A stretch of DNA of 64,000 bases. It comes from Laetmonice hystrix. Its lineage: Eukaryota. The notes beneath the pieces are model-generated. The model saw only the letters and a list, made by a program, of their open reading frames with translations. It did not search any database and was not told the origin of the DNA. The position numbers and the translations under genes were made by a program. How positions within the stretch are numbered: the first letter of the stretch is position 1; the number at the start of each line of letters is the position of its first letter. Where the stretch lies: positions 25,484,001 through 25,548,000 of the forward strand of contig OZ249436.1 in the NCBI GenBank assembly GCA_965235115.1. Reading direction: 5' to 3'. Below, piece by piece: positions 2,823 through 46,508 of the stretch.

Positions 2823-2993
2823 ATGCAGGCAACACTCGGAAACAGATAATGTTGTTATTTGGGCAACACCCGTTTATTATAATATTAAAAATATAAGTTG
2901 GACAGTGAGCCCACACTGCACGTGTCCAACATTAATTAAAGGTGTAGGACAATTAGGTTATTTCTGAACAGAAAGGGTGTCACCATCCCATTC

Positions 2994-3291
2994 TTGACAA
3001 TGAGCCCACACTGCATTGTCATGGGAATAGATATGGTAGAAAATTACAACTAACGGTAACAATAAGTAAATGTCCATGAATTGGTATTACTCTTGACAGT
3101 GAGCCCTCACTGCACCGTCTCGAAACCATTAATGTCCCATTTTTGACAATGAGCCCACACTGCATTGTCATGGGAATAGATATGGTAGAAAATTACAACT
3201 AACGGTAACAATAAGTAAATGTCCATGAATTGGTATTACTCTTGACAGTGAGTCCACACTGCACCGTCTCGAAACCATTAATGTCTATGTT
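2994..3291. repeat. 149-bp tandem duplication inside block B (also in the other B copies), carrying repeated hairpin motifs
   Basis: ttgacaatgagcccacactgcattgtca starts at 2994 and again at 3143. Confidence 0.85.
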
Positions 3292-5579: not shown

Positions 5580-6640
5580 TTAAATGTGAGCCAGATCCTA
5601 GATGGGCTGCAAACTCAGGACAGTCGAATCCCAACGATCTTTCATTGGCATTGGCATATATGCAGTGGCCAATATCAATTAACTATAATGTTGTATCACT
5701 GAAGCAAAAATTATAATAATATAAATATTAAGAGACTGAAAATTTGCGACTGGTATGTCATATGAGGCCAATATCAAGTAAATATAATATTGCATCACTG
5801 AAGCAAAGACAAAGTATATTATATAATCTCAATAAAAAGACTATGTATCGTGTACATGTCACATCAACAGTAATGAAGTAAAGTAATACAGTATGAAGTG
5901 AAATCAATCAGTCGGGTAAATGTGAGCCAGACATGAGAAGGGCTGCTAATTTAGCATAAGCCCAACGATCCCTCAATGTCACATCAGGCCAATATCAAGT
6001 AAATATATTGCATCACTGAAGCAGAGACAAAGTATAATATCTCAATAAAAGAGTCTATGTATCGTGAATATATCACATCAACTGAGGTAATATAATATGA
6101 ATTGAAACAAATCAATTGGGTAAATGTGAGCCAGACATAAGAAGGGGCCGCTAATCCAGCATAAGCCCAACGATCTCTTAATGTCATATCAGGGCAATAG
6201 CAATAATATATTGTATCGCCGAAGCAAACACAAAGTATTGAAACAAAATCAATTGGGTAAATGTGAGCCAGACATGAGAACTCAGAGAAGGGCTGCTAAT
6301 CCAGGATAAGCCCAACGATCTCTTAAGGTCATATCAGGACAAAAGCAATAATATATTGTATCGCCGAAGCAAACACAAAGTATTGAAACAAAAATCAATT
6401 GGCTAAAATGTGAGCCAGACATGAGAAAGGCTGCTAATCTAGCATAAGCCCAACGATCTCTCAATGTCATATCAGGCCAATAGAATAATATATTGTATCA
6501 TCAAAGCAAAAACAAAGTATTGAAACAAAATCAATCGGGTAAACTAAATGTGAGCCAGACATGAGAAGGGGGTGATAATCCAGCATAAGCCCAACGATCT
6601 CTCAATGTCATATCAGGCCGATAGAATAATATATTGTATC
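5580..6640. repeat. Degenerate tandem repeats (~135-200 bp, ~6 copies) inside family-1 element
   Basis: Recurring aaatgtgagccagacatgagaag...agcccaacgatctctcaatgtcatatcaggcc near 5582, 5918, 6122, 6259, 6407 and 6547. Confidence 0.85.
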
Positions 6641-6679
6641 ACCGAAGCGAAGTAAAATGTAGCAATAAAAAAAAAAAAT

Positions 6680-9200
6680 TAATAAAGACTGAAAGAAAAC
6701 TGGAACTGCTGATCAAAGAGAAAACCCAATAGTTTCCTGATGACAGAGCCCAACACAAAAATATATACGAGATATAAATCCCATTAATATCAATCATAAT
6801 CAAATGTGACCAATAATGAAGAGAACCAAACGGTCTCCCAATAAGGTCTAAATATAGCAATAACAAGGTGTATAATGTAGCCATAATAAAAATATAAAGA
6901 CTGAATAGAAAGTTGGAACTACTGATCAAAGAGAAAACATTATAGTCTCTTGATGACAGAGCCCAACACAAAATACGGGATATAAATCCCATTAATATCA
7001 ATCATAATAAAATGTGACCAATAATGAAGAGAACCAAACGGTCTCCCAATAAGGTCTAAATATAGCAATAATAAGGTGTATAATGTAGCGATAATAAAAA
7101 TATAAAGACTGAAAAGAAAACTGGAACTACTGATCAAAGAGAAAACATTATAGTCTCTCTATGACAGAGCCCAACACAAAAATATATATGCGGGATATAA
7201 ATCCCATTAATATCAATCATAATAAAATGTGACCAATAATGAAGAGAACCAAACGGTCTCCCAATAAGGTCTAAATATAGCAATAATAAGGTGTATAATG
7301 TAGCGATAATAAAAATATAAAGACTGAAAAGAAAACTGGAACTACTGATCAAAGAGAAAACATTATAGTCTCTCTATGACAGAGTCCAACACAAAAATAT
7401 ATATGCGGGATATAAATCCCATTAATATCAATCAATCATAATAAAATGTGACCAATAATGAAGAGAACCAAACGGTCTCCCAATAAGGTCTAAATATAGC
7501 AATAATAAGGTGTATAATATAGCAATAATAAAAATATAAAGACTGAAAAGAAAATTGGAACTACTGATCAAAGAGAAAATATGATAGTCTCTCGATGACA
7601 GAGCCCAACACAAAAATATATATACGGGATATAAATCCCATTAATATCAATCAATCATAATAAAATGTGACCAATAATGAAGAGAACCAAACGGTCTCCC
7701 AAAAAGGTCTATAGCAATAATAAGGTGTATAATGTAGCAATAACAAACATATAAAGACTGAAAAGAAAAATGGAACTGCTGATCAAAGAGAAAACAGTAT
7801 AGTCTCTCGATGACAGAGCCCAACGCAAAAATATATATACGGGATATAAATCCCATTAATATCAATCATAATCAAATGTGACCAATAATGAAGAGAACCA
7901 AACGGTCTCCCAATAAGGTCTATAGCAATAATAAGGTGTATAATGTAGCAATAATAAACATACAAAGACTGAAAGGAAAATTGGAACTGCTGATCAAAGA
8001 GAAAACATGATAGTCTCTCGATGACAGAGCCCAAAACAAAAATACGGGATATAAATCCCATTAATATCAATCATAATAAAATGTGACCAATAATGAAGAG
8101 AACCAAACGGTCTCCCAATAAGGTCTATAGCAATAATAAGGTGTATAATGTAGCAATAACAAACATATAAAGACTGGAAAGAAAATTGGAACTGCTGATC
8201 AAAGAGAAAACATGATAGTCTCTCGATGACAGAGCCCAACACAAAAATACGGGATATAAATCCCATTAATATCAATCATAATCAAATGTGACCAATAATG
8301 AAGAGAACCAAACGGTCTCCCAATAAGGTCTATAGCAATAATAAGGTGTATAATGTAGCAATAACAAACATATAAAGACTGGAAAGAAAATTGGAACTAC
8401 TGATCAAAGAGAAAACAGTATAGTCTCTCGATGACAGAGCCCAACGCAAAAATATATATACGGGATATAAATCCCATTAATATCAATCATAATAAAATGT
8501 GACCAATAATGAAGAGAACCAAACGGTCTCCCAATAAGGTCTATAGCAATAATGTGTATAATGTAGCGATAATAAACATAAAGACTGAAAAGAAAATTGG
8601 AACTTCTGATCAAAGAGAAAACAGTATAGTCTCTCGATGACAAAGCCCAACGCAAAAATATATATACGGGATATAAATCCCATTAATATCAATCATAATA
8701 AAATGTGACCAATAATGAAGAGAACCAAACGGTCTCCCAATAAGGTCTATAGCAATAATAAGGTGTATAATGTAGCAATAATAAACATATAAAGACTGAA
8801 AAGAAAATTGGAACTACTGATCAAAGAGAAAACATGATAGTCTCTCGATGACAGAGCCCAACGCAAAAATATACGGGATATAAATCCCATTAATATATCA
8901 AAAATAATAAAATGTGACCAATAATGAAGAGAACCAAACGGTCTCCCAATAAGGTCTATAGCAATAATAAGGTGTATACTGTAGCAATAATAAACATATA
9001 AAGACTGAAAAGAAAATTGGAACTACTGATCAAGGAGAAAACATGATAGTCTCTCGATGACAGAGCCCAACACAAAAATAAGTAATCTAAATCCCATTAA
9101 TATCAATCGTAATAAAATGTGACCAATAATAAAGAGAACCAAATGGTCTCCCAATAAGGTCTAAATATAGCAATCATAAGGTGTATAATGTATCAATAAA
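6680..9200. repeat. ~205-220 bp A-rich tandem repeat, 12 copies, inside family-1 element
   Basis: Marker gaaccaaa(c/t)ggtctccc recurs 12 times between ~6825 and ~9150. The repeated minus-strand ORFs here are by-products of the repeat. Confidence 0.95.
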
Positions 9201-10368
9201 AAATATATATATACAACACACGTAGCCAGATTAATTAAACAGGCCCCGTAATGTACAGTATATACGGGATACATATCAATCATCATTCACAAATATGCTG
9301 TAAATTGTAATGTATCAATAATGTATAAAGAAACCGTGGCCAATAGAATGAATTTAATGTAGGCCTAACAATATATCAGGTTAAGGTAGCATTTATACAA
9401 TAATTTACATGTGTAGGAAAACATTGGCAATAGGAAATAACCACTGAATGATGGATGAAAACAAAACGGTCACTCTTGTAGATCTACTCCCGCAAGACAA
9501 AATTCAATGGCATTTTAATAGACACGACACGTAGCCACCCGTCCTCAGAGCCAACGTCAAACACTAAGTCAATAAGTGACTAACGAGGTTACTAGATTCT
9601 AAACTAGTAGATATCATATAGTCATAACTAACGTCGTTAGATTAAACGCTAATGTAGGCTCAGGCTAAGTATCAAATTCATGACATAAGACAAGTCGATC
9701 CAGTTAGACCGGCTAGCCTGACTAGCCTAGTGACAGTGTCTATCATTATCAATCAACTAGATCTAGTCTATAACAAAACTACAGCCACATTCACTAGATC
9801 TAGATCTACCCCGATAGTAAAGAACTAACGGTGACGTTAAATTCGGATTCACTTTAGAACTAAACTCCTTGGGTATCTGTGACAGGACGACGAAGATGAA
9901 TGCTGTCACTAAGACAAGTAAGAGTAAGAATCAAGACGTACCCAGACGCCATTTTGCTTAGCCTAGCCCTAGGCCTAACTCCTAGGAGATATAAAGATGG
10001 CTAAACCTAGGCCAACAGACTATGCCTAGAAAATGAAAGCAAGTACAAAAGACGGGTGACCATTTTATAAAGACGTGACTAGAAACTCAACCTCGGATGA
10101 ACTAAAATTAAGACGATTGAGAGTGATAAAATGCGACCGTTGCCACTGAAAACCGTTACCCTGCGTGTCTTGAAGAAAGTGGGAAGATTCAAGGACAACG
10201 TCACGGTCGTCAACCGGTTGCGGCATGATGCATGATGGGATTCGGCGTGACATAATTATTCAACACATGACCCAGAAAGTTGTTGCCATGACGGCACTGA
10301 TTCAGACAGTAGGCCTCTCGTGTTTTCCTGCATAAAATTCGTTGAACCTTCGATTACAACGTGCCTTT

Positions 10369-25549: not shown

Positions 25550-26817
25550 AGGAGACATCTAAGAGTTTTCCGACTTGGTAAGGTGCCAACTTTTAATGAG
25601 CTGAGTCACGTGACCGCCGTGACGTAATTTACGCAACCCACTGTAGCTTCTAGGCCGTGCTAAGCCTATAGTAGACAGGCTAGACACGACCGTGAAGAGA
25701 AGTTTGACATGTTTAACGTGTCTGAAGACAGCAACAACCCTGTCAAGCCTACTTGTTCGAGAGAGTAAATAAAAATGGAGCACGAGGAGTAAGTTTGACA
25801 GAGCCAGAGGTGTTTGAAAGCTCTTCCGACGGACGTACATTTGAGTAGGCGAGCGCCGAAAGCGAGAGCCTTTATACAGTGGCAGGGGTGGGGTGGGGGG
25901 TCCAAGCGGTCTTCCCCAGAAATATTTGCAATACAATTTTCAGTAGAAATCGATCGCCCGTAATCCCTTGACATTTCCACCAGAATACGGCACGAGATAC
26001 AGGATCAGGGCTGTCAGGACCTAGAATGAAAGCCCGCTATTGGGCTACTAACTCGCCCGGGCCATCGGGCCCTCGACGCCGGGAAGCTGAGATTGTCAGT
26101 GCCGTGCCCTGCGGGCGGCGAAGGGAACCGGCGGAGATGTCTGGGTACGTACCTTCCAGCATAGGCGTACGGTACTTCTTAGTTGACAATCTAAATACTG
26201 GAAATAGTATTTAAACGTTCTACAATTTACACATTTTAAGAAACTGTGTATTGGGATTGCGGAATTCCCACTCTGGGATGATCAACGGAACCATGTCTAC
26301 TACTGTCACCGGTCGGTCGGGAGTCGGGACCCGTGCTGATTGACGCTCACACGCAGTGTGGTGGAAACTCATCCCACACGGTTTTTGGCTTGTGTTGAGC
26401 ATCCATAAACAACACAGCATACCATATCCCTGCCTGCTACCACAGACTATAACTTAGTCAGGGCCAATGAGATAGATATAGCGTCTAGAGCTCTATTCAT
26501 CTCGTTGGTCTGTGCTGTAAACAATGCAGCTGAAGCTGCGGAACCAAAGTGAGGTTGCGTATATGACGTCACATTACAGAATTCCGACAGCGGCCTTTAG
26601 AAATATGCATATGGCAAGCGACTGTTGAGGCGTGTATTATTTGTTAAAAAATAGCATTCACACACGAAATTTAACATGTTTATGATATGGTTGTGGTTGC
26701 ACATGGACCTAAGGAAGGCGTCTAGACACTTTTGGCCAAGATTTAGGTTAGTATTCGCTTAGTATTTGTTAGTCACAAAACGGGGTCAAAACGCGTCAAA
26801 ACTCTTAGATGTCTCCT
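25550..26817. mobile_element. Non-autonomous Kolobok-type DNA transposon (1268 bp)
   Basis: TTAA TSD at 25546-25549 and 26818-26821 (single TTAA in empty units). Perfect 20-bp TIR aggagacatctaagagtttt / aaaactcttagatgtctcct. 5'-AG (RR) terminus fits Kolobok rather than piggyBac (5'-YY). THAP-start relic inside. Confidence 0.8.
26361..26425 (-). pseudogene. Frameshifted relic of a THAP zinc-finger N-terminus (probable Kolobok transposase start)
   Basis: Minus strand reads ATG GTA TGC TGT GTT GTT TAT GGA TGC TCA (MVCCVVYGCS...), then after a frameshift GMSFH. This matches the THAP start M-x-x-C-x-V-x-G-C...G-x-S-F-H. Confidence 0.6.
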
Positions 26818-29800: not shown

Positions 29801-29926
29801 AAAAAATGGTGCAGACCATTTCTAAAGTCACAGTACCCCACACCCGGCCTAATATTACGTTTCAGTATCCATATACGCTGCAAGCGGCAGGAACTCGAAT
29901 ACAGGCCTAAAAGTAACCCCAGTCTA
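26818..29926. repeat. 1.75-kb macrosatellite
   Basis: Unit landmarks at 27411 and 29167. Confidence 0.97.
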
Positions 29927-30885
29927 TAGATAACGTCACTAAATTGTACGCAAAAACATTAAGTTGCCGGTACGTTTTGTGCAGTTTCGCGGCCTGTATC
30001 GCCAATAATAAACATATACCATCGATTTATATCTCGTTCTCTTCCTGAGATAACAACCAATACAGTCATGTAACTTTTCAGTAAATTCCGTTAGAAGTAA
30101 ACAAGACAGGAGCGTGTGACCGGCTCGGAAAATGTTCCGAAATGTTCAATTTTTGCCGACTTTATGTCAAATAATTGTCAATATCAGCTTCAATAAAGAT
30201 GCTATCTTATCGTAAACAAAGTATGGTGTGTAAAACTAAATTTTGCTTCAGATGGTACCACTCTTACGATTATCGGTGGAATTTTTTTCAAATAAGGATC
30301 AACGGAAGACGAGCGCGAAATTTGAAGAATATGCCATATTTTTCCGTAATTCTTTGGATCTGGTGACGTGACAATGCGCGTGGTCAATTCCAAAATATCA
30401 CCGCTTCTTATCAATGTTAGGCAGTATCGAAACAAGGTTAAAATTAATTAAAACTATACCTTTACAAAGCTGACATCGACAGTTTACTGTCATCGTGTTT
30501 TCAACGCACGAGCACACGCTGAAGCCGGTTTGAACGGAAGTGAAGTTACTCTTACCAAACATTGAGAACCAGGATGTTGACCTGTGTATTTTTCTTCCTG
30601 GGTCACAGCTGTCAATCTATAATAATGCGCTAAATGTAGCACGGTTCAGTCAATGTTTATTCTGTATTTACACATTTATTTATCTTCTTACATTGTGATC
30701 CGCTAGTAGACATCATAATAAACAATCTGTGTTAACAGTGAGAGTGTAAAGCCCCAACTTATAGAGATAGCAGTGAATGTGTGCGAGTATCATCAGTATG
30801 AGTTTCGTCTGCTCGTGCGGCGATCGCCGTTGTACCGACACAATCTTCCCGTTCTCACCGGCATGCCGTGTCAGCTCCCGGCAGT

Positions 30886-33800
30886 ATGGAGAGCCAGTGC
30901 CGTGTATGCTTTGCGTACGGCTGTACACAAAGCAATCATCACCGTTGCAGCAAATGTGGGGTCAAAGGCCACACCCAGAGGACTTGTTTGAACACCATTG
31001 TTCCTGAGCCAAGTCACTTGCCGACTCCTGCTCCCCCCATACCTTTGAGGCGGGATTCAACGAAAGCCCTGACTCAGGTAAGCCAAAGGCAAAGGCTAAT
31101 TTAAGTAGGGGGTTAATGTGAATGATGAATCACCCGCTATTTTTTATGTGAGCATGTGAAATGAAGGGGTGCCTATTAAATCTAAATAATAAATATATAA
31201 TTGATACTAATTATCAAACATGGAATGAAATAAATCACAGTAAATTACAGAAAATATTCTAAGACTATTTATATTAAAAGTTCTTGTCTAGACTAACGTT
31301 ATGGCTATTCTGAACTTCACTGGTTGGTACCCTGAGGCGGTGGGGATGGGGGAGGGGATGGCGGCTAAGTACTGTGACTTGTAAGTGTAAGGCCTGTGCG
31401 AAATATTTGGCTTTACCTATATTCATTTTGGGTGGAGGCTTTCCATTAAAAATGTAGTTCTAATAAAACTTCACACATGTAAAGACCTGCATATTATGTG
31501 GCATGAAAGTGAATTAGTATTATAAAACACCATAGATACACGCACACTCACCCAAATTTATTTACATTTGAACACAGACACTTGACCAGATTTCCTCTCA
31601 AATTTGCAAATATCTTTTATCTCGTTTTAAAAATGATAGGTTAAAATTTTAATTCTAAGCCCCAGATACGCACACCCAAAAAGGAAAGGTTGCCATCCCA
31701 ATTTTTATTACACATATTTAATAGCAACATTTTAAGAAGTTTGGAAATCTGTCTCTTGAAAATGTTATTAAGTTCTGGTGCTTGAGGTCTGGGGTTGTTG
31801 TATTCCCATGCTGCTAAACATTAATAACTAGGCATTAAAAAAAATTGAAGGAATTTAGTGTTTGGTGTTATTCTCATACAAATGGTGGCCTGCGTATTTA
31901 TCTACTATTATCTTCATCACTTAGTAGTTTTTTTAATTGGATTACAGGAAGAAGTGGACATGGCTTCTCGTGTTATCCTTGGATGCCAGAACGAATACCA
32001 AGATCTAAGAGAGACCCCTTTGGACAGGTATCAATCATCCTCTTGAAATATTATTCTCTCAAATTATCATGCATTATGTGAACTTTTACGTAAATTTTCC
32101 AATACTCATTCTTACTTTAATACAGAGCTAGTCGTCTAACAGGTCTGGGAAAATCCACCCTGCACAAAATGAAAGAGTGTTTAGACAATGGGGAACATCC
32201 CCAAGCAGTAACTGACAGGCGTGGAAAGTGGCAGCGGCAAGAACCAAGGATGCTCCTCGCCAAAGTATATGGTTAATTAAATAGTAACCACTCACTATAT
32301 AGGACTTGCCTTGTGAATAAAAGAAATACTATGCACAGAGTTTACAAACAGGACGCAAATTGTTGTACTGCACTCTACTGGAACATATTATAAGTTCAAA
32401 TTGATTTTTCTATGAAAATCTGTTCAGCATTTAGCCCATACAGTATCCAGGTGTTCCTTAAGTAGAGGTGTTCCCTATCGGAGGTTTTACTGTATTTTTT
32501 CAAGTATTTACAGTTAAAGCATTAGGAATGAAAATCTCTTTTTCCCCCTCTCAATCTCTTAAATGATTATTCAGTCTCAATTTGCCTGGATTCGCAATGT
32601 TTCAATGCATAAGTAGAAACTGAAGACATTATAATTCTTTGATCTACATGTGTACTATGGGATTTTTTGTAAAGGTCAACAAGTGCATCAGCCTGATGCA
32701 CAAGAATGGGATTATGTCATCCATTCCCAAACTTGCCACAAATCTGGATTTCTACGAGGGAATCAGAGTAAGTGTTGAATATCTTATATAATCAATGTAG
32801 TGCACGACAATTTGCAGTAACCTATAGAATTTGGCAGAAGTAGCAGCTAAATGTCCAAACAGACCATGCATTGAGAGACAATTTGAAAAATTCTCATGGA
32901 CACTTTAAAAGATATATAGCAAATATTTTATATACAAATAAAATTACTTTTTTTTGTGACATCTCATACCTTCAATGCACTGTCACAACATACAAATAAC
33001 AACATTTGGTTTACATGTACATGTATATAGAATTATAAGAAAGGTATAATAATTAGAGGAAACTCGTCTCTGATATGGGATCCTGTATCAGACTCGGCGG
33101 CAAGAGTGAAGATCCACATCGGCACTCGTGCTTCCTGTGTATAGTTCATTATTTCATTTGTTTTTTAGCTCTCACACGCCACCCTTCGCCGTATCCTGAC
33201 AAAGATTGGATACAGGTACACCACCCCTGGCTCCTCACAAGTGCAGTTGGCGAAGGAAAACAAAGACATGAAAGACTATAGGCTGTCATACTTGGAGGCA
33301 ATAACCAAGGCCAGGGAAACTCGAGAGGTGGTTTATCTAGATGAATCTTACGTAAACCAACGGCACCAGTCCAACCGCTGTTGGATAAAGAGTGATGTTA
33401 AGGTAGGATGTTTGCTATTTATGTGACTTCTTAAGGAACCCATTAAAACACTTCCTGGAAATTCACCAGAAGAATTTCAGCCAATAGTCCATCTACATAA
33501 CCTCCAAAAGTGGTAATTTTTCATAGGTATACATCCCAGCTGGTAAAGGCCGCAGATATATATTATATGCTGCCGGATCTAGGAACGGATGGGTCGGGGA
33601 CCCAGTCATCTTCCCACATCGTGACAGAGGGGACTATCACGATGCTATGAATGCCAACCACTTCGAGGTAGGTTTTGTGATTTTCTCTGGAGAAATCACA
33701 ATACCTGCAGACTAAAACACTTTTCTTTTGTACCACAATTGTCATGAAAGCAGACAACTGGGTTGGGGTGAAAATCGGCCACTTATTCACTGATGTTCTA

Positions 33801-36678
33801 TTCGTCATAAATCGGTTAAAGCAGAACTTATGAGAAAAATCAGTTTCTGTATAAAAATGGTTGCATGGATGGAAACTACACTTCACAGTTCTTTCACTAT
33901 TACATGTGATAGGAGCTGTTCACCAAGACCTGTGAGCAGGCGGAAGAACTTCTGGGCCCTTGTGCCATAATTTTGGACAACGCCGCCTACCACAAACGCT
34001 TAACATCAGAAACTGACCGGGTCACCTACTGGCAAAGGCTACCAGCAAAGGAGGTGCTTTCTGCTTGGCAGGAAAAAAAGGTACATCTAGTGAGGTTAAT
34101 CTGATTAATATGATGGAACTATTCACAAATCTTATCTTTAGAACATACAACGCTGATAATTGCAGCACAGAGTGGGCATGCAGAAATAAATCACTTGTTA
34201 CACAAAGGCTTGATTTCTAGTTTTATGTTTAAAGGTACCAGGGCAGGAAAAGTATGAGGGTCCTCCTGTCAAATCAAAAAAGCAAGTAATGGACTGGCTT
34301 AAGACACATCGTCCCCAAGGTAAATATACTTAGTGCTGCATTACACATGCATCTAAAAATTAATACAAGTGTCATAACTAGAGTCCTTGATGTGCTTTGC
34401 TGTGCTGTGTAGGTATTCATTTTATTCCTTTAATCGTAGTCCTGGAGTAGTATTACAAACTCTTCCAAACTCTCATTCTAAATTCTGATTCTACAACCTC
34501 CTCAACTTTCCTCCACATAATAATGAGTGTCCCCACACTTTTACAAGTCTTTTACAGTCATTGGCAGGACCATGACACTTGACAGGCCTTCTCACGTTGA
34601 CTGTCTTCATTTTATTTAATGAAGTGAGGATTTCATACAATCTGCTATTATAATATCAAGTGTACATATCATACTCAACCACGATGGCACATAATTTATT
34701 ATGAGATATTCTCAGATATATGACTTTGGATAAAAGAATGTCCAATCTCGATGGAACATTGATGATTTTTTTAATCTCCAATGTAAACGTTCAATATCAG
34801 GACTAAGGTGAGAGCCACATACATATACTTTCATTATATATCTGGCTTGTAGAAAACCTTTCTAGGATATAATACTGTAAATCAGGAGATTTTCACAACA
34901 TTTGGTTTTTGGACCTTTCGCAGCATCTAATTTTTGCAAATTTCAAACTTTTCTCGAAAGAGGCACCTTTCTTTCCTGGTTCATCACTAGCACTTTCCAA
35001 CAGAGACAGGTGCCCGTTTGTTAAGTCATAATGTTTGGCAATAATTTACTCTGTGTGGGACAGAACTGTGGCCAGCAACTACTGCGGTGCCACAAAGTAT
35101 GCATGCACCTTAATGTTACAATGGTTCTGACATCACAGAACCTCCTGGGCAATCTGTAAAAAAAGACAAGTGTGCCAAGTTTAGCTGACTGGTGATTAAA
35201 GTTTGCCTAAGGTAGAGGGAGATTATATCACACCTTGAGATCACTTTACTTCTCCGACTATCACCCATGTAGAGACCATTGCAAACTTCATGATGTGCAT
35301 GGAACTTCTTCCTGTGCCTAAGTTTTAGGGAATTCTTTTGTTTCTCACCAAATACGAAATTACACGTGAGAATTACACAGTTTACAGTATGTATGTATGT
35401 ACTACGTATATGTTTAAAGTTCTATTATTTACACAGGTGTGTGCCAGATAAAGGCCATAGCCATGAAACATGGACATAGCATCATATATCTCCCACCTTA
35501 CCACCCTGAACTCAATGCAATCGAGACGGCATGGGCAGTGGTGAAAAACCATGTTGCAAGGCAAAACCATGCCAACGTAACGTTTGCAGACCTCCACTCC
35601 ACAATTTTGGAAGGATTTAAAAAGGTATCACTGCAGACCTGGGTGCAACTGGACGCAAAAGTTCTCAAGGAAGAGCAGGTACAGGGTTGGGGTCAAATAC
35701 GTAATTGTATAATTTGTATTTGTATTTAAATACGCCATTTTTCACTGTATTTGTATTTATTTGTATTTGAAAATTTTAAAAATGACCGTATTTGTATTTA
35801 TTTGTATTTGGTTCTGATATTTGAAATATTTGATCAAATACAGTCAAATACAGGCGTGTCCCCCCCAACAAATATCTGTAATATACAGCTGCTCACTTGA
35901 CACAGTCATGCCATTCACTGGTACAGTGTATTGTCCATATATTAGTACAAATTCTTTATATATTTACACTGAAATATTTCACTTCTGATTATGAATGTTT
36001 AATCACGGTGATATACCACATTCAATATGATTCAAAACTTCAAGTAAATATTAAGTAATATTTGATTGCCGGTGGCCAGAATATTTGTATTTATTTGTAT
36101 TTGAATCCCAAATATTTGTATTTGATTCAAATTTCAAATACAATATTTGTATTTTTTGAAAAAGACGGTATTTGTATTTATTTGTATTTGAAAAGCTCTA
36201 TTTGACCCCAACCTTGAGCAGTTACAACACCAGCAGCTGAAGGAGGATAAGGCCAAAGAGGAAGCCTTTCGAGACCTCCATCCCGACCTTATCTTCAATA
36301 CGGGTTCTGATAGCGGTGAGTATTAATGGTATTAACAAGAAATACACTAGGATATTTTACACTAACATCTTTCCAGACAAAACTTCCAGATTGTAGCCTC
36401 CAAATGTGTAAGACTGCCCATGGTTTATCAATGATGTCAAATAATTTTTTGTATTGCATCACATAAGTTGACTAAATTTCACATGATCCTTTTTTTAAGA
36501 TGATGACAGTGATGATGACCTTCTGGAGGAGCTGGCAGACGGCATAGATGGTCATGGTGGTGTGGATGGTGAGGCGGAGGGTGAGATGCCGGTGTGCCCA
36601 CATGGTGGACTGCTGCCACAGGAGGAGGACGCAGTCTCTGCCCTGCTGGCATTGGGTATAAATAACAGTAGAGTCTAG
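30886..36678 (+). CDS. Spliced DDE transposase, 11 exons, 548 aa, DD91E, with N-terminal CCHC knuckle, HTH region and acidic tail
   Basis: Exons 30886-31077, 31948-32027, 32126-32264, 32675-32767, 33169-33402, 33527-33667, 33913-34080, 34235-34319, 35437-35678, 36222-36315, 36500-36678. All introns are GT-AG and phases are consistent; total 1647 nt with no internal stop. Motifs: CSKCGVKGHTQRTC; RASRLTGLGKSTLHKM (HTH-like); LSHATLRRILTKIGYRY; VVYLDESY (D at 33340); PAGKGRRYILYAAGS; GDYHDAMNANHFE; IILDNAAYH (D at 33976); YLPPYHPELNAIETAW (E at 35523). The start codon and first exons are less certain than the catalytic exons. Confidence 0.85.
35682..36216. mobile_element. hAT-type MITE (535 bp) forming intron 9 of the transposase
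   Basis: TIRs cagggttggggtcaaata / tatttgaccccaaccttg (17/18). 8-bp TSD agcaggta (35674-81) / agcagtta (36217-24). Repeated subterminal gtatttgtattt motifs. Confidence 0.85.
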
Positions 36679-36702
36679 TAGCAATAGGTACGGGATTGAG
36701 TC

Positions 36703-36970
36703 TTACTCTTGAGCCGGTACCGTATGCAGTCTTTTCCAGTGAGGATCTGACGAGATCTTGTACGATTCATGTAGAAACTTGTATGTCTCGGTTAAGTCTG
36801 TTTTGCACCTTCTACTGGCTAACGTACTGAATTCGACTGGTTCGGGGCAGAGTCTATAGAACTGTCTTTGACTTTGTACCTTTTCCAGAGCGTTGATATC
36901 TTTTGCTAGGTGAGGGTTCCATACAGTAGATCCATATTCTAAATACTCCATACTCCAGGTGAGGTCTCAC
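36703..36970 (-). pseudogene. Decayed fragment of a CR1/L2-group non-LTR retrotransposon ORF2 C-terminus
   Basis: VRPHLEYG / LEYGSTVWNPHLAKDINALEKVQ...TLASRRCKTDLTETYKFLH resembles the post-RT motif VRPHLEY..W.P....DI..LEKVQ....L..RR...DL.ETYK.L; frameshifted. Confidence 0.7.
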
Positions 36971-37612
36971 TTGTGAGTTGTGTTGTGTATGATGATGAGT
37001 GTGAATACACAATTTGTTTTGTTGACGTGCAGTAAAAGGGCGGTGTCTTAAATAAACATAATGGAAACATTGTCTCTGGGTTGTCTCTGTTAGTCTGTAT
37101 ATCATTTTTGGTGACGATGTCAAATGGGCCATCCAGCACTGACAGTCACAGCAGTCAGTGTCAGTGACAGCAGTGCCAGTTGCCCATCGCACGAGTTGGT
37201 CACTGCAGTTCAGCATTTTCCCCAAAGCAATCATCTATCTGTGTTTATGGGACAATCTTAGGATAATCTATACATCTTAAGACACGATACCGTGAACAAT
37301 CATCGCTCTTTTCGGTTTAAATCCGTAGTTACCAAAGTGCTTCCGTGCATTCCACAGGCACAGTCAGTGGAGGGTTGCGCGGGAGTGAGCGATAATACAG
37401 GAATTTCCGGGGGGCGCTGACCTCGCGGTTGCATCCTCCCGATTAAAATTAATAAAAAAGACAACTTTTTATATATGTATTCACTATTTATCTCAATAGC
37501 GTATTGTTACAGATTTAGAAGTGCTTATCACTTCAGTTCTGTAATTTGCATAAGAGATTCCTTGAGTCTAAGTGGACCGACGTTGCTGTTTACAATTTGG
37601 TGGCGCCATCTA

Positions 37613-40600
37613 TAGCAATATCATACTCCCATGCCATATACGAGCTTGTAATTATCTTTAATTAATGGGCTCCGCAGCACCAACCCACTGCATTAACATT
37701 TGTTTAACAGCTTAACGCACCTTGTAAAATTTGTTCAAGTGCGTAAAAATGCGTGTCCACCTCCACATACTTTAAAAATCACTATACCCACCCAGCGACA
37801 TCCACTCTAATACACGCCTAAAAGGAACTTCACTGTCCCATTTGATTCTCCAGCACGTATAGGATGTTTCAAGTAACATTCATCCACGGTCTGGCCCAAT
37901 AACGTGCAACAAGGCATAGTAAGTCAATGCGAGCTCGCATGTCAAACCTAACCCGCCCCCCAGCACATGAGCTGAAAATATTCAAATAGCTTGAAAACTA
38001 GAATATAGCTTTGCTTAATACCATTATACCATCAACTCGCATTACAGGCCTAATGCGAAGCTCCCAGCCTAAAACGAGTTTCCAATTAATTTAAAGTTAA
38101 CAAGATGCACTAATAATCGATTCCAAGCCTAATTAGGCCATTGCTAGTTGGATAACCAAATCTCATACAAAATACACCCTCCCGGCAGATGACCTGAGAA
38201 TATTCAACTCTTATGTCCGATATATCCCTGTCCGCTTAGTAGCACCCAGCCGGGCCCCCATTTTGACATTGCAACACCAATACAGCAAGTGCCCAGCTAA
38301 CAGCACAAATAACAGGATTCAGGGCTTCCTACCACGTTACAAGTCACAATAGATTGCTGCCTGTCGTAAAAATATACCAGACCATTTTAAAAAGTCACAG
38401 AACCCCAATCCGGCCCTAATATGTCACTCCCAGTACCAATAGACGCTGGAAGCACCATCAACTGAAATTCAGGCCTAGAACCCACCTCTCTCTACCAATA
38501 TCATGCACCTAGTCCGTATACGAGGTTGTAATTTACTTTAATCAACGGGCTGCGCCGCAGCAACCCACTCTGGTCTTTGCAATCTTTTTCAATATGCGTT
38601 AACATTTGTGACCAGCTCAACGCGCCTTGTAAAATTTTTCAAAGTGCGTAAAAGTGTGTGTCCACCCCGACACGCTTTCCAAACCACTATACCCACCGAG
38701 CGACATCCACTCAAATACAGGCTTCGACCGATCCTCACTGTGCCAATAATCCGCCACAAGGCAAATTCAGTCAATGCAAGCTGGAAAATCGAATGTCAAA
38801 CCTAATGCTCCCCCCCCCAGCACGTTAACTGAAAATAATCAACTAGCTTGAAAACTAGAATATAGCTTTGTTTAGCTAACAATCTACTCTCCCAGCGCCA
38901 TCAACTCGCATACAGGCGTAAAAGCAAACGCACTGCCCCATATAATGCTCCCAGCCTAAAGCGATGTTGCAATTAATTTAAAATTAACAAGATGCACTAG
39001 TCATCCGATCCAAGCCTAATTACGTCATTGCTAGTTTCATAACCAAATCTCACAGAAAATACCCCACCCGGGCACATAACCTGAAAATATTCAACTTTTA
39101 TCTCCAATGTATCCCTGTGCACCTAGTAGCACCCAAGCGGGCCCAATTTTGACATTCCAACACAAATACCGCAAATACCCGCCTAATGGCACAAAAAACT
39201 TTCTACCCCGTTGCAAGTCACATTAGCTTGCTGCTTGTCGTAAAAAATGGTGCAGACCATTTCTAAAGTCACAGTACCCCACTCCCGGCCTAATATTACG
39301 TTTGAGTATCCATATACGCTGCAAGCGGCAGGAACTCGAATACAGGCCTAAAAGTAACCCCAGTCTAGCAATATCATACTCCCATGCCATATACGAGCTT
39401 GTAATTATCTTTAATTAATGGGCTCCGCAGCACCAACCCACTGCATTAACATTTGTTTACCAGCTTAGCGCACCTTGTAAAATTTTTTCAAGTGCGTAAA
39501 AATGCGTGTCCACCTCCACATACTTTAAAAATCACTATACCCACCCAGCGACATCCACTCTAATACACGCCTAAAAGGAACTTCACTGTCCCATTTGATT
39601 CTCCAGCACGTATAGGATGTTTCAAGTAACATTCATCCACGGTCTGGCCCAATAACGTGCAACAAGGCATAGTAAGTCAATGCGAGCTCGCATGTCAAAC
39701 CTAACCCGCCCCCCAGCACATGAGCTGAAAATATTCAAATAGCTTGAAAACTAGAATATAGCTTTGCTTAATACCATTATACCATCAACTCGCATTACAG
39801 GCCTAATGCGAAGCTCCCAGCCTAAAACGAGTTTCCAATTAATTTAAAGTTAACAAGATGCACTAATAATCGATTCCAAGCCTAATTAGGCCATTGCTAG
39901 TTGGATAACCAAATCTCATACAAAATACACCCTCCCGGCTGATGACCTGAGAATATTCAACTCTTATGTCCGATATATCCCTGTCCGCTTAGTAGCACCC
40001 AGCCGGGCCCCCATTTTGACATTGCAACACCAATACAGCAAGTGCCGAGCTAACAGCACAAATAACAGGATTCAGGGCTTCCTACCACGTTACAAGTCAC
40101 AATAGATTGCTGCCTGTCGTAAAAATATACCAGACCATTTTAAAAAGTCACAGAACCCCAATCCGGCCCTAATATGTCACTCCCAGTACCAATAGACGCT
40201 GGAAGCACCATCAACTGAAATTCAGGCCTAGAACCCACCTCTCTCTACCAATATCATGCACCTAGTCCGTATACGAGGTTGTAATTTACTTTAATCAACG
40301 GGCTGCGCCGCAGCAACCCACTCTGGTCTTTGCAATCTTTTTCAATATGCGTTAACATTTGTGACCAGCTCAACGCGCCTTGTAAAATTTTTCAAAGTGC
40401 GTAAAAGTGTGTGTCCACCCCGACACGCTTTCCAAACCACTATACCCACCGAGCGACATCCACTCAAATACAGGCTTCGACCGATCCTCACTGTGCCAAT
40501 AATCCGCCACAAGGCAAATTCAGTCAATGCAAGCTGGAAAATCGAATGTCACACCTAATGCTTCCCCCCCCCCCCAGCACGTTAACTGAAAATAATCAAC

Positions 40601-41515
40601 TAGCTTGAAAACTAGAATATAGCTTTGTTTAGCTAACAATCTACTCTCCCAGCGCCATCAACTCGCATACAGGCGTAAAAGCAAACGCACTGCCCCATAT
40701 AATGCTCCCAGCCTAAAACGATGTTGCAATTAATTTAAAATTAACAAGATGCACTAGTCATCCGATCCAAGCCTAATTACGTCATTGCTAGTTTCATAAC
40801 CAAATCTCACAGAAAATACCCCACCCGGGCACATAACCTGAAAATATTCAACTTTTATCTCCAATGTATCCCTGTGCACCTAGTAGCACCCAAGCGAGCC
40901 CAATTTTGACATTCCAACACAAATGCCGCAAATACCCGCCTAATGGCACAAAAAACTTTCTACCCCGTTGCAAGTCACATTAGCTTGCTGCTTGTCGTAA
41001 AAAATGGTGCAGACCATTTCTAAAGTCACAGTACCCCACTCCCGGCCTAATATTACGTTTGAGTATCCATATACGCTGCAAGCGGCAGGAACTCGAATAC
41101 AGGCCTAAAAGTAACCCCAGTCTAGCAATATCATACTCCCATGCCATATACGAGCTTGTAATTATCTTTAATTAATGGGCTCCGCAGCACCAACCCACTG
41201 CATTAACATTTGTTTACCAGCTTAACGCACCTTGTAAAATTTTTTCAAGTGCGTAAAAATGTGTGTCCACCTCCACATACTTTAAAAATCACTATACCCA
41301 CCCAGCGACATCCACTCTAATACACGCCTAAAAGGAACTTCACTGTCCCATTTGATTCTCCAGCCCGTATAGGATGTTTCAAGTAACATTCATCCACGGT
41401 CTGGCCCAATAACGTGCAACAAGGCATAGTAAGTCAATGCGAGCTCGCATGTCAAACCTAACCCGCCCCCCAGCACATGAGCTGAAAATATTCAAATAGC
41501 TTGAAAACTAGAATA
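37613..41515. repeat. 1.75-kb macrosatellite
   Basis: Landmarks at 38608 and 40361. Confidence 0.97.
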
Positions 41516-41729
41516 AGGACTCGACGCCACACGTCGGGTACCTTTATGTAGGCAAAACGAAGACTTTAATTGGTACTATATGCTTATACAATACCAAAAG
41601 TATGTTGTAGTATAGCGTATGAGGCTTCTGTCGATTCTTCCGGTCTCCATATTGGTTCTCGGACAGGATCTCACGTTATATCAGAAGGAAGGAAACGGAA
41701 GAATGGAACCGGGAACCCTGGGTGAGAGG

Positions 41730-41736
41730 TATAAAT
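41730..41736 (+). promoter_or_regulatory. Candidate TATA box in block A of family-2 element (copy at 45823-45829)
   Basis: gg-TATAAAT-acgg lies about 25-35 bp upstream of a pyrimidine-rich ctctctcctcaga stretch, an LTR-like promoter layout; positional inference only. Confidence 0.35.
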
Positions 41737-43706
41737 ACGGAAAACCGTCGACGCAGTACCCTCTCTCCTCAGACTACACGAGCGTTCTCTACGTTTCAAA
41801 GGCTCGCCGCGATCAGACGACCTTTGTTCCTCACACTACGGGTGAGTTCGTTCTACTGTTGGGTATTCCGTCAAGCGTAGAGTAGCTTATTGCGTGTATT
41901 TCGGTTTATGACTTTCTGCAACACCTCTGGTGTATGTCTAAACAGATTCAGTAACTTTCTTGTGGATCCGAAATAGGCCAAGAGGGCGCACAGTTCACTG
42001 TATACGGGACCAACCCGTCCTTTGTTATTCGGTCGGTAGGACTCACGTAGTTGAGACGAAAGGTCATGTGTGGGTTGGAGTGTTGTTTATCGCCACATTT
42101 TGCGTTCGATCGACAACGTTTGCGGGCCAATGTTCTGTAGTTGTACCTTTCTTTGTCCTCTGCATTGAGCCACAGGGATTTCAGTCTGTATTACCACAGG
42201 GCAGTTGTGGTTCAGATACGGTCACCGGAGTTTTCGACAGTATTGGACAGGACGGTATATAAAATCGGTAGGTTTCCTGGATTAGTTTAGACGTTATGAG
42301 GATAATAGTGACATTGATAGGGTTAACCATTAATTGTACGCCAGTCTTTGTCCTGTGTATTTAGTCATTAGGATTTTCAGTTTGTATTAGCACGGGACAG
42401 TTATGGTCCATCTGCGGTTTGCACCGGAGGGTTTCGACTGAATTGAACGATGTATAAGTTAGTGGTTTCCCAGGATGGTTTAGACTTTATGTGATTGTAG
42501 TAACATTGTTATACGTTTAACGATGTGTGTAAATTCGTACCAGTCTTTGTCCTCCGTTCGGAGGCACTAGGATTTCAGTCGGCATTACCACGCTCTGGGA
42601 TTTCTTTTCGACTGAACTGGACGATGTATGAATTAGTGGTTCAGGGAATTAGTGTATCAATTGGGGGCGGTGTACCCCAGTTCCGTCTTTACACCGTTGG
42701 TGGTTGTGCATGTGCAGTTTAGATGTTGTGTTCTGGGGTCGCCCCTCATTGGTGGGTTTTACTTTATGTCATGTTATGTTATGTTACGTTGTGTAATGTT
42801 ATGTTATGCGTGGGTTCCGTCTCTCCTGGGGCAACCGTAACCTTTGTCGGGAGTAGAGGTAGTGTTCCCAAAGCATGTTGTACTTGGATTTTCGGCTGGG
42901 GTCCGGTGTCCCGGGGTTCCGTCGTCCCCGCCGTATGTTGTCAGCTAGGGCACTTCGAGGAAGTGAGGTTGTGTTCCCCGGGCGGCCTCGCGGGGTCCAT
43001 TATTAGTGGTCGTGTTTCGCCACCCTAGGTTTCATATAGGAGTGTGCTTAGTAAAACTCGTCTCTTGTCCAGTACTTCAGTGGATAGGCTATTTTACGGA
43101 TATGTGTTTTGTTTAGTTCGTCCACATCTTCGGACTTCGGTGTGAACCCCCTTTTCCTTCGATATTACCCAGTAATCTTGTTTAATTTTACCTGACCAAT
43201 CATGTTTAGTGGACCAGCATAATATCTGGGTAATAGCAAGATGTCCGCTTTAGTTATTTTAGGCGAGTTACGATCTCCACTCAGCTGGCCGCTTCCATTA
43301 GGTCACGGGTATTAATGTTATAATGTAGACTATAATCTTTATTATACTGTTGTCGTTACTCAAATGGATTGTATTGAGTGAGATTGTGTTCCTTTGGGTT
43401 CCGTCTCTCCTTAAGTTGTTGAAGTTAGTGATGCTGTGTTCCCATGTGGGTTCCGTCACTCCTCAAATTATGCTGGAATCTTGTTCCTAAGAGTTCTGTT
43501 GATCCTCAAATGGTGTACCCAAGCAGTGGGGTTGTTTCTGTGCGTTTTGTGGCTCACATTTGTTAAAAAGTGGATTCCTATTCCAATGGACCCCGTCACT
43601 CCATTTTATTAAGGTTCTGTCGCTTGTGTCCCCTAGTTATTTAGAAGTGAGGTTATGTTCAAGTGGTTCCATCACTTAATTTTATAATTTTATATTATGA
43701 TAAATA

Positions 43707-43738
<32 letters not shown>
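43707..43738. repeat. (ATT)n microsatellite in an AT-rich low-complexity tract (~43680-43910)
   Basis: About 10 consecutive att units. Confidence 0.9.
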
Positions 43739-46508
43739 GTTGTCTTATTATTTTAGTGGTTTATTATTTTTAGTAGTCTTATTTTATTATTATTTTAATT
43801 ATCAATTTTATAGTATTGTTATAAAATATTAATTTTTAATTATTATCCCATTTATTACGATTATGATTCATTTTATTACTGTTTTATTTATAATTATTAT
43901 TATAATAACTGTACCTCAAGTTTCCGTCACTCATTTTATTACTATTAATGGGAGTATGTTCCTGAGGATCCGTCTAGGGATGCGAGGTTGTTGGATCACT
44001 CCGCTTTCTAATACTTTGTGTGGGGGGTGCGGTGTCTTGAGAGACCGTCACTCATATTAGCCTGGTTATCAGGAGTTAGATTGTGTTTTAATGGGGTCTG
44101 TCACTCCAGTTTATTACTATTATTGGCTGGGTGTTTCCAAGGATCCGTTACTGATTATGTCCTGACTGAGAGCTGGATTGTGTTCATATAGGCCTACTCC
44201 GTGTCAGTTGGGTGGTATTCCTGCGGTACCATCCCTCATATTTTCCTGGTTAATTAGGAGTTGCGTTGTGTTCTAATGGAGACCGTCACTCCAATTTATT
44301 ACCTTTGTGATGGATACCGTGTCTGTCCATGTACCTTTCTAAAGTTTATCACCTATAGTCTTATTGTTCAAAATTACTGCTTGGAATATTTATTGCTCTT
44401 CCAGTGTTCGCTTCGAAGCGTGGTGCCTTCTACCAGAGTTTTTCTTAGGAGGTTATCCGGTGGGAAATATGTTGTATAGTATGTCAGCGACGACATACAA
44501 TTTGAATTTCCAGTCGTTCCGCCAGTGTGAGTTACCCTTTAAGTTACGTTACGGGTAGTGCAGGAGTGTCGGGCTCTGTAGCATTATCTAGTTTTGGTAA
44601 GGTAAGGTGACTGGACGAGGAGGAAGAAGAAGTAACATCGGTTGGACAGGAGTGTACTCTCGTCTGGCCTCAACCACATACCTCCTTGGATGTTGACCTG
44701 GAAGCTTGGCGTTTATTGAACAGTACCGTGGTTGGAGTTGTTATTAGTAGTAGTATTATTTTCTAATTTGGCCCCAAGTGAAGTGGAATGGAGGTGGGGC
44801 CACATTGTTTCCCGGGTTTTCGGTTATCATAATTTTCATAATCTCAACATAAGGATTAATAATGTTTTACGTTGGATGTTGTCCTTTGGGTTCGACTAGC
44901 TGGATGTGATACTCAGCCTGTCATGGGAATTTAAGTCGTTCATCAGCAATTTGACAAGATTCAAAGCTTTATTGTATTCAAGTTGCAGGTACGGAGGCGA
45001 TGCCAATTTCGGACAGGGAATGATTGGATCCATGTTAATTGTTGACAGTGGGTTATCGGAACGCGGTGGGTCTGGAGATGATTGGTTCCGGATCTTTCAA
45101 CTCCCATAACCGGACGTTAGCGCTCAATTGAGGCTTCTGGTGAGGTATCGGTTGGATGCGTTCGGACTGTAAGCTTGCCTTCTTTGGTGGCTCCAGCTGC
45201 ATCTTCGATCCAGCTTAGTGGCCTTGTTGTCTCCACCTAATAAGGCAGGACTATAAGTAATAGGCCTACCCATGGAATTTTGGCCAATGTATCTCCATAT
45301 ATCTATAATGTATTATCAATTGTCATTATCTATTATCAGTTGTCATTATATATTATTACTATGTTATTTATACAGTTATATATAATAGTATGTTATTTAT
45401 ACTTGTTATATATTATATTATAGTATATTAATATATCATTTATATGTGTTATATATATTTATCATTTACCATCTTATATGATGTAATGTTTTGTATGTGG
45501 GATTGTATGTAGAGTCTCCCCAGTTGGGGATGATCGACGGGTTACGCAATAAAAATGTAACCTACTATACTTTTCACATACAGCCTCTGAGTTTTGACTA
45601 CATAAATAAGGACTCGACGCCACACGTCGGGTACCTTTATGTAGGCAAAACGAAGACTTTAATTGGTACTATATGCTTATACAATACCAAAAGTATGTTG
45701 TAGTATAGCGTATGAGGCTTCTGTCGATTCTTCCGGTCTCCATATTGGTTCTCGGACAGGATCTCACGTTATATCAGAAGGAAGGAAACGGAAGAATGGA
45801 ACCGGGAACCCTGGGTGAGAGGTATAAATACGGAAAACCGTCGACGCAGTACCCTCTCTCCTCAGACTACACGAGCGTTCTCTACGTTTCAAAGGCTCGC
45901 CGCGATCAGACGTCCCACCTCCGCCCCGACTCCTCCATACCTCCCTGAGGACACTGGGGATATTTCGTCGTAGCGTCTTTGACCACGTTCATGGGGTCAT
46001 AATTATGACCAGGGGTTGGTTAAGGGTGGTACCGGGGTCAGCGTGGTCTGCCCGGGCTTTTTGCGGGGTTATACAGGGATGTGGGTCGTGGGAGGGAACT
46101 CGTGGTCTAGGACTGTGTGGGCCTTGTTGTCTCCACCTAATAAGGCAGGACTATAAGTAATAGGCCTACCCATGGAATTTTGGCCAATGTATCTCCATAT
46201 ATCTATAATGTATTATCAATTGTCATTATCTATTATCAGTTGTCATTATATATTATTACTATGTTATTTATACAGTTATATATAATAGTATGTTATTTAT
46301 ACTTGTTATATATTATATTATAGTATATTAATATATCATTTATATGTGTTATATATATTTATCATTTACCATCTTATATGATGTAATGTTTTGTATGTGG
46401 GATTGTATGTAGAGTCTCCCCGGTTGGGGATGATCGACGGGTTACGCAATAAAAATGTAACCTACTATACTTTTCACATACAGCCTCTGAGTTTTGACTA
46501 CATAAATA

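Follow-up and report, generated by a model that had tools for sequence, protein, structure and literature searches.

The 64,000-nucleotide stretch of the Laetmonice hystrix genome considered here (contig OZ249436.1, positions 25,484,001 to 25,548,000; hereafter the window) is mainly an array of a 1,753-bp satellite, and one satellite unit in it is split by an insertion of 7,686 bp. In our opinion, this insertion is a full-length cut-and-paste transposon of the Sailor group (IS630/Tc1/mariner, or ITm, hyperfamily), autonomous or recently autonomous and needing host splicing, and the probability of this reading, which is drawn from sequence, can be put at roughly three in four. The identity of the element and the model of its transposase gene are very likely correct, and the chances that the copy in the window may still make a working transposase are about even. 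Beyond what an initial annotation of this DNA had noticed, intron 9 of the gene is very probably a nested miniature inverted-repeat transposable element (MITE), and the insertion site corrects the target-site duplication (TSD) published for Sailor.

The satellite match ends at 29926 and restarts at 37613. The element, its terminal inverted repeats (TIRs) and its target site are placed as follows:

29927..37612, + strand: whole element, 7,686 bp; the satellite match breaks off and resumes around it
29925..29926, + strand: left TA target-site duplication; a single TA stands here in 23 of 23 empty units
37613..37614, + strand: right TA target-site duplication, by comparison with empty satellite units
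29927..29948, + strand: left TIR, first letters TAG; 18 of 22 positions shared with the right TIR
37591..37612, - strand: right TIR, pairing with the left one

The TIRs are imperfect, with 18/22 identical positions (binomial p about 1e-7), and their 22 bp agree with the length of at least 18 bp expected of Sailor. With the element removed, the host unit departs from the consensus of the 19 other units at 2 of 1,753 bases (0.11%), which is tied for the lowest value, divergence across the other units being 0.11 to 2.18%; both flanks agree with the consensus up to the TA itself. It had been claimed earlier that the insertion lies in a barely diverged satellite unit with a clean TA duplication and that it arrived there recently; the site was found exactly so, and the low divergence of the host unit supports the recent arrival. 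No second unit bearing the same element was found in the 64-kb window.

C-TA-G is the sequence of each of the 23 empty satellite sites in the window. At the filled site, a TA flanks the element on either side and the element itself starts and ends with TA, so that both junctions read TATA; because the empty sites hold a single TA, the duplication is TA only and the inner TA belongs to the TIR. In the Sailor paper, a 4-bp TATA duplication is presented as a difference from Tc1/mariner, and TACA, TATT, TAAA and TAGA are tabulated on both sides of other members (PMC8533490). The Eupelmus annulatus entry, tabulated as TACA/TACA, starts with TACA and ends with TGTA, that is, inverted, and therefore its two inner bases also belong to the TIR (PMC8533490); it is the sole non-palindromic published entry with both ends visible, and the test thus consists of one element and one entry. 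It was shown in this way that the Sailor duplication here is TA and not the published TATA. A clean TA reading from many empty sites removes one published point in which Sailor differs from Tc1/mariner.

The transposase gene runs from an ATG at 30886 to a stop codon ending at 36678, and its 11 exons join into 1,647 nt coding for 548 amino acids (aa) with no internal stop:

30886..31077, + strand: exon 1, start codon and a CX2CX4CX4H plus CX2CX4HX4C zinc-knuckle pattern; joined frame, same pattern in the homologue P0052
31948..32027, + strand: exon 2; junction 1-2 gap-free in the alignment to the homologue P0111
32126..32264, + strand: exon 3, first helix-turn-helix region; helices in the predicted structure of P0052
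32675..32767, + strand: exon 4, second helix-turn-helix region; HTH_33 in P0052 at 159-196, E 5e-4, below the cut-off
33169..33402, + strand: exon 5, first catalytic D (D226); joined frame and homologue search
33527..33667, + strand: exon 6; joined frame and homologue alignment
33913..34080, + strand: exon 7, second D (D315) and 34 spacer residues; joined frame and homologue alignment
34235..34319, + strand: exon 8, 28 spacer residues, needed for the frame; homologue alignment and skipping test
35437..35678, + strand: exon 9, catalytic E (E407); DDE_3 match, E 2.6e-9, and 78% identity to the relative P0001
36222..36315, + strand: exon 10; P0001 continues ungapped
36500..36678, + strand: exon 11, acidic tail, short terminal helix motif and stop; same tail layout in P0052 and P0111

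All ten introns are of the GT-AG type; their lengths are 870, 98, 410, 401, 124, 245, 154, 1,117, 543 and 184 nt, and their phases 0, 2, 0, 0, 0, 0, 0, 1, 0 and 1. The GC content is 0.50 in exons and 0.27-0.37 in introns. The catalytic triad consists of D226, D315 and E407, with 91 residues separating the second D from the E (DD91E). The frame and junctions of the initial annotation were reproduced exactly, as was its spacer length, and its suggestion that scans based on open reading frames (ORFs) miss this gene was borne out: among 12 pieces scanned with Pfam, the sole significant match was DDE_3 in exon 9 (E 2.6e-9). Exon 8 had been named as a possible weak point of the model; when it is skipped in silico, the reading frame changes and the protein stops at 353 aa, ahead of the catalytic E, so that both the frame and the homologue alignment need this exon. 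Alternative exon 3 donors at 32271 and 32283 were rejected, as they break the frame.

Contigs carrying sibling copies of the element were compared with the window in three runs of one sample, possibly the window's own source. Besides the joint of the MITE discussed below, all three joints in the coding span (31459-31492, 31615-31693 and 34441-34901) are intronic, and 12 of the 12 short indels among those listed fall in introns (49 further rows stand beside them). Large and small indels listed are found in introns or in the non-coding ends.

Exon 5, used as a query, retrieved 66 proteins. P0052, a single ORF of 570 aa, aligns with model residues 5-484 at 36% identity (E 1e-102), P0051 aligns with residues 169-457 at 40% identity, and P0111 was found by a search with P0052. 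Since the single-ORF proteins P0052 and P0051 align and since the alignment with P0052 and P0111 spans all 11 exons, including the exon 1-2 junction, exon 8, the acidic tail and the short terminal motif, the gene model goes beyond chance. The Cys/His pattern of exon 1 was aligned in P0052 only; the zinc-knuckle region had no Pfam match in exon 1 or in P0052 and has low confidence in the structure model of P0052, and we infer a zinc role for it from its spacing pattern. P0049 is continuous over intron sites 2-5 and its similarity fades near site 6; it is ambiguous and was not counted as evidence. No homologue of exon 7 with its read-through turned up among proteins 34-111 aa long, and a plasmid search with P0052 gave no match.

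The AlphaFold model of P0052 (mean predicted local distance difference test score 77) has Mos1, Sleeping Beauty and SETMAR as its closest structures (Foldseek E 5e-9) and superimposes on SETMAR with Z 17.0 and a root mean square deviation of 2.9 over 187 aligned residues. A mariner-type fold was shown in this way for the predicted structure of the homologue, though the spacer of 91 lies outside the DD34-41E/D arrangement of Tc1/mariner proper. The sequence search against PDB returned Sleeping Beauty alone (E 0.09).

A separate observation concerns the spacer that separates the second D from the E. The Pfam domain HeH/LEM (PF12949) matched there in 5 of 8 canonical Sailor proteins scanned, 3 of the 8 having been chosen for already bearing that label, with E from 1e-6 to 0.6; none of these matches reaches the curated cut-off. 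All matches lie between D2 and E (relatives P0119, P0145, P0187, P0066 and P0137), where the window has exons 7-8 as a counterpart; no match was found by Pfam in proteins of the clade described below, and the region is helical in the P0052 model. Such a HeH/LEM-like spacer may be an extra DNA-binding module. ESM Atlas yielded nothing of use for the D-E spacer. The Sailor paper describes the spacer insert as lacking detected homology (PMC8533490).

In the main tree (41 rows and 260 columns, hand-picked among 92 candidates, with three near-identical bacterial rows retained), the model forms a clade with P0052, P0051 and P0111 (support 99/99). This clade lies inside 33 eukaryote-type long-spacer rows (96/94), and all 38 long-spacer rows are split from three IS630 DD34E rows (97/95), which upholds the earlier view of a Sailor-like transposase. 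The same four-row clade was recovered in a quick tree of 75 rows, where its sister was a bacterial row, and one partial mariner row placed in a tree had a very long branch. The bacterial rows carry the HPELQPIE motif and DD82E, as do the bacterial Sailor entries of PMC8533490. The motifs VVYLDES, AIILDNA and HPELNAIET of the model correspond to I/VVYLDET, VIIMDNA and HCELNPIEL of Sailor, and its spacer of 91 lies within the range of 78-111 published for Sailor (DD82E) (PMC8533490); the closest relatives have spacers of 88, 90 and 90.

Judged by these features, the protein is a Sailor transposase in the broad sense, with a clade of its own that is long-branched and has DD88-91E, an N-terminal zinc-knuckle pattern and an acidic tail. 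A Sailor clade with DD88-91E is apparently undescribed. DD91E itself is already present in Sailor Table S6 for a red alga, four oomycetes and a springtail, and the single annelid entry of the Sailor table is DD83E and 1.9 kb long (PMC8533490). Members of the clade were absent from the 80 JGI metagenome loci retained out of 207 and from one viral locus (best long match 31%, no DNA match).

Intron 9 illustrates one way in which such a gene may acquire introns. It is composed as follows:

35679..36221, + strand: intron 9, 543 nt, made of 3 nt of the left TSD copy, the MITE and 5 nt of the right TSD copy; a sibling joint skips 543 nt in 3 of 3 runs
35682..36216, unstranded: non-autonomous MITE of 535 bp with 18-bp TIRs (17/18); 8-bp duplication at 35674-35681 and 36217-36224 (7/8)

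The MITE is flanked by AGCAGGTA and AGCAGTTA; the left TSD copy contains the donor GT, the right one the acceptor AG, and the sequence of the MITE is repeated in the contigs of the sample. The 543 nt skipped minus the 535 nt between the TIR ends leave 8 nt, identical at 7 of 8 positions, and the TIRs agree at 17 of 18. We take an 8-bp duplication with short TIRs to be hAT-type features, and the MITE is presumably hAT-like by the length of its duplication. When viral and prokaryote collections were scanned with the MITE TIR, three and five isolated matches, respectively, came up, none of them paired, which is about the chance level.

Contigs joining 35679 to 36223 in 3 of 3 runs, with 102 letters on the shorter side (joints were detected at a likeness threshold of 85), represent siblings without the MITE; the MITE-less contig of run X1 has 17 other differing letters in 295 (about 6%). 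The four-letter ambiguity of this joint is compatible only with G at the position where the TSD copies differ. P0001 is ungapped over model residues 378-489 (76% identical), with an Asp codon, which starts with G, at the insertion site. The ORF of P0001 extends from within intron 8 to just beyond the intron-10 donor, from which it follows that this protein shares introns 8 and 10, without 9. A mutation of T to G in the left TSD copy as the origin of the donor was rejected, because the sibling joint and P0001 make G ancestral.

The MITE would have landed at an exonic AG|GT, and its 8-bp duplication would have given the donor on the left and the acceptor on the right, splicing then restoring the frame exactly; later, a G in the right TSD copy would have become T. 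At the 0.11% divergence of the host unit, a single change among the 16 duplicated bases has a chance of about 2%, and the MITE insertion therefore probably predates the jump into the satellite. This suggests that the element entered the satellite after gaining intron 9. We regard this intron as a recent and precise gain inside a transposase gene. A tandem acceptor (GAG CAG) was also observed at 36216-36221 at the end of intron 9, where use of the upstream AG would add one Gln. To our knowledge, the source of most new introns is untraceable; here one can still see the source element, its target duplication and the ancestral sequence without the interruption, in a gene small enough for a minigene.

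As to the age of the introns, 8 of the 66 exon-5 matches (46-67% identical, each in its own 50% cluster) lose similarity at residue 247-249 and run on after K/Q/R-V into unrelated sequence, mostly with an early stop, and two of the eight also start at the intron-4 acceptor. Intron 5 is thus common to distant relatives, and hence the intron-bearing Sailor lineage is in all appearance old. AG|GT junctions occur today at 3 of 10 introns, or at four counting the ancestral state of intron 9. The two junctions of intron 7 are spanned by a direct repeat of 8 bp without mismatch (34073-34084 / 34231-34238), longer than in any of 90 mismatched donor-acceptor pairs (maximum 6), and no TIR is visible inside the intron; this is a weak hint that it may be a second, older TSD-made intron. 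DNA transposition has no reverse-transcription step, so that introns would not be stripped and a long-lived lineage of low copy number could accumulate them.

Among the 80 metagenome Sailor loci retained out of 207, 35 have at least one intron-sized gap, mostly in one lineage. Six loci were examined, and three of them have two clean GT-AG introns, two have one and one has none; the sites, near model residues 184 and 264, are not common to the gene studied here. The two-intron lineage (L014 at 1459-1592 and 1832-1923; L017; L024) has its GT-AG introns at fixed positions, one of 134 nt and the other of about 92 nt (243 nt in L017). Sailor genes do acquire introns elsewhere too, and ten is the unusual part. 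The initial annotation had stressed the introns and the long spacer; the ten introns in a protein of Sailor type are upheld, whereas DD91E is already in Sailor and introns as such are not unique to this lineage, in view of the two-intron one.

Other traces were noticed in and around such introns. A short GT-AG intron after the catalytic E motif can be recognized by eye in the Adoxophyes Sailor entry, on which the paper is silent (PMC8533490, Data S1). Intron 3 of the window gene contains a 52-bp TA-flanked remnant with CAGT...ACTG ends (32441-32492), and loose contig ends at 32449-32497 mean that it is repeated elsewhere. In intron 8, 459 nt (34441-34901) are missing from a sibling contig in 3 of 3 runs, with no TSD seen.

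The sibling contigs are 2-6% diverged from the window copy and come from several diverged siblings. Contigs identical to the window copy have depths of 35.9, 33.7 and 22.4 in the three runs versus 37.4, 41.3 and 24.8 for the unique left-junction contig, which holds 30 satellite letters, one short of the bridging rule. Gene conversion as the source of a mosaic of identical and 2-3% diverged contig parts was rejected, as merged contig paths explain it equally. In the right subterminal region, abundant repeat matches stand on both sides of the gap 37447-37541 (93-nt), with depths of 838 and 1,094 in two of three runs; this abundant right-end repeat may be a non-autonomous relative using the same end.

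According to the proposed mechanism, the host spliceosome would remove the ten introns, and the transposase would bind the 22-bp TIRs via its helix-turn-helix region, excise the element and reinsert it at a TA, which would be duplicated. The cut-and-paste chemistry of this scheme is that of Tc1/mariner biochemistry. A number of findings weigh against it. We infer host splicing from DNA and homology, and the uninterrupted proteins P0052, P0111 and P0051 may come from intronless genes or from spliced transcripts. The trees were built from rows other than Tc1, pogo, Gambol, Zator and TP36, and in the approximately unbiased test the placement of the clade outside all other long-spacer rows received p 0.248 and was not rejected. 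No identical twin copy was evident in the contigs of the one sample, which is a weak hint, contig depth being no copy number. Among the differences to siblings listed (40 of 168 rows), five exonic ones are replacements and two are silent, exons have 6 differences in 401 positions versus 32 in 1,042 elsewhere (Fisher p 0.10), and no significant signal of purifying selection was found. By a simple pyrimidine score, the acceptor of intron 9 is the weakest among the ten (5.0 versus 6-11.5). With intron 9 retained, the protein would be 474 aa long, stopping after 16 more residues with the DDE core whole, and selection for the splicing of intron 9 may therefore be weak.

These points give substance to the alternative that the window copy is silent or is mobilised by the enzyme of another Sailor copy, its open frame being inherited from a recently working ancestor. 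We consider this a serious possibility, although not the favoured one: the absence of an evident twin, the 2-6% divergence of the siblings, the lack of a signal in the ratio of nonsynonymous to synonymous changes among the variants listed and the location in a large satellite array, where silencing is common, agree with it. Against it, no break is found in the 548 codons and 20 splice sites although the siblings lie 2-6% away, and Gly99, common to P0052, P0111 and P0049, is kept in the window copy and altered in sibling contigs. The earlier description of an active lineage can accordingly be retained for the intact frame and the recent arrival, but not for activity, as no identical second copy is evident. 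It is also conceivable, though rather unlikely, that intron 9 stays unspliced and the MITE truncates the protein at 474 aa, the loss of the acidic tail being tolerated as the catalytic core is complete. The weak pyrimidine tract, the alternative acceptor at 36218 and the read-through stop after 16 residues would suit such a case, but the donor CAG|GTACAG and the acceptor CAG are canonical, splicing gives the ancestral frame gap-free, exons 10-11 have kept an open frame and P0052 and P0111 retain the tail.

Homogenisation of the satellite by gene conversion could make the flanks of an old insertion appear young, and the array is indeed strongly homogenised, most units lying under 0.7% from the consensus, while the nested MITE has a changed TSD base and indels relative to its family. 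However, the flanks fit the consensus up to the TA, the host unit is tied as the least diverged of 20 and no second element-bearing unit exists in the window, which makes an old insertion quite improbable. Still less credible, indeed very improbable, is a domesticated host gene with introns gained during long residence at one locus, like the TIR-less bivalve TLEWI, which shows a similar intron-rich, low-copy pattern with an intact frame (10.1101/656579); both TIRs, the clean TA duplication inside a satellite unit and the several diverged siblings contradict it. A cut-and-paste Sailor transposon with a split transposase gene remains the preferred reading.

A broader picture can be proposed tentatively, and we would hold it at less than even odds. 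Sailor elements of this clade would be old and still mobile in many invertebrate lineages, would have passed from an intronless state to ten introns while remaining autonomous, gaining introns through nested MITEs at AG|GT (clearly in intron 9 and perhaps in intron 7), and would have jumped afterwards. If this is true, the copies form a natural before/after series of intron gains within one genome, and splicing is a possible control on transposase production. Such intron-split elements escape transposon surveys based on ORFs and on TBLASTN.

Several other insertions and repeats were observed in the window. The satellite insertion at 25550-26817 (1,268 bp) has a TTAA duplication and 20-bp TIRs starting with AGGAG and is presumably Kolobok-like. 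The insertion at 41516-46504 (4,989 bp) contains microsatellites and internal duplications (45220-45608 = 46120-46508 and 41512-41819 = 45605-45912) and lies at satellite unit position about 563, with two other interruptions at about 575-578, which suggests a local insertion hotspot near positions 563-578. A composite insertion occupies 1-476 and 2823-10365 and includes tandem arrays of 149, 145 and 205 bp; its part 1-476 repeats 2822-3297 and also 3653-4128 in inverted orientation at 99.6%. Directly past the stop codon of the transposase gene, a broken stretch on the minus strand (36703-36999) resembles, as we assume, the C-terminal part of the reverse transcriptase of a long interspersed nuclear element; it had no Pfam match, and its Atlas matches were unnamed eukaryotic clusters at 0.92, with recognition under the threshold.

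The ingredients of this element are each precedented, namely DD91E in Sailor, intron-bearing ITm transposases (TLEWI), multi-exon CACTA genes and introns made by transposable elements; no prior description of their combination, a multi-intron Sailor with TIRs and a MITE-made intron in its transposase, was found in the open-access literature, where it appears to be new. Like published Sailor elements, it has a long D-E spacer, the motifs around D, D and E, short TIRs and a low copy number, and the Crassostrea entry ends in TATA-GATAA, the same as the left end here (PMC8533490). Unlike them, it is 7.7 kb long versus 1.38-6.98 kb and duplicates TA rather than TATA; it has ten introns and an N-terminal zinc-knuckle pattern, whereas the main text of that paper never uses "exon" and contains "intron" only within the title of a reference, and "zinc" occurs 0 times (PMC8533490). 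Five motifs typical of the clade occur 0 times in its supplement, where alignment gaps could hide them (PMC8533490).

TLEWI, a Tc1-like element of bivalves, is similar in having an ITm transposase with spliceosomal introns at low copy number in marine invertebrates; it has DD36E and 3-6 exons, is without TIRs and TSDs and is thought to be domesticated, whereas the element described here has DD91E, 11 exons, TIRs and a fresh TSD, so that neither the DD36E spacing nor the lack of TIRs and TSD applies to it (10.1101/656579). Its ten introns and intact ends exceed the intron-bearing ITm cases found in the open-access literature (3-6 exons, no TIRs). CACTA elements likewise are mobile, with DDE transposase genes containing several introns and showing intron turnover, but they belong to another superfamily and have one to six exons, with loss prevailing (PMC4158355). 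Intron gain by the AGGT route, through insertion of a transposon, has been described (PMC3443670), and intron 9 resembles the introns made by transposable elements, including Introners, in that an element with TIRs became an intron, with splice sites from the TSD and the coding sequence restored (PMC3443670, PMC11282704, PMC12130899). It differs from those cases, as far as the available parts of these papers describe them, in that donor and acceptor alike derive from the TSD, the interrupted gene itself encodes a transposase and the state before insertion survives in siblings.

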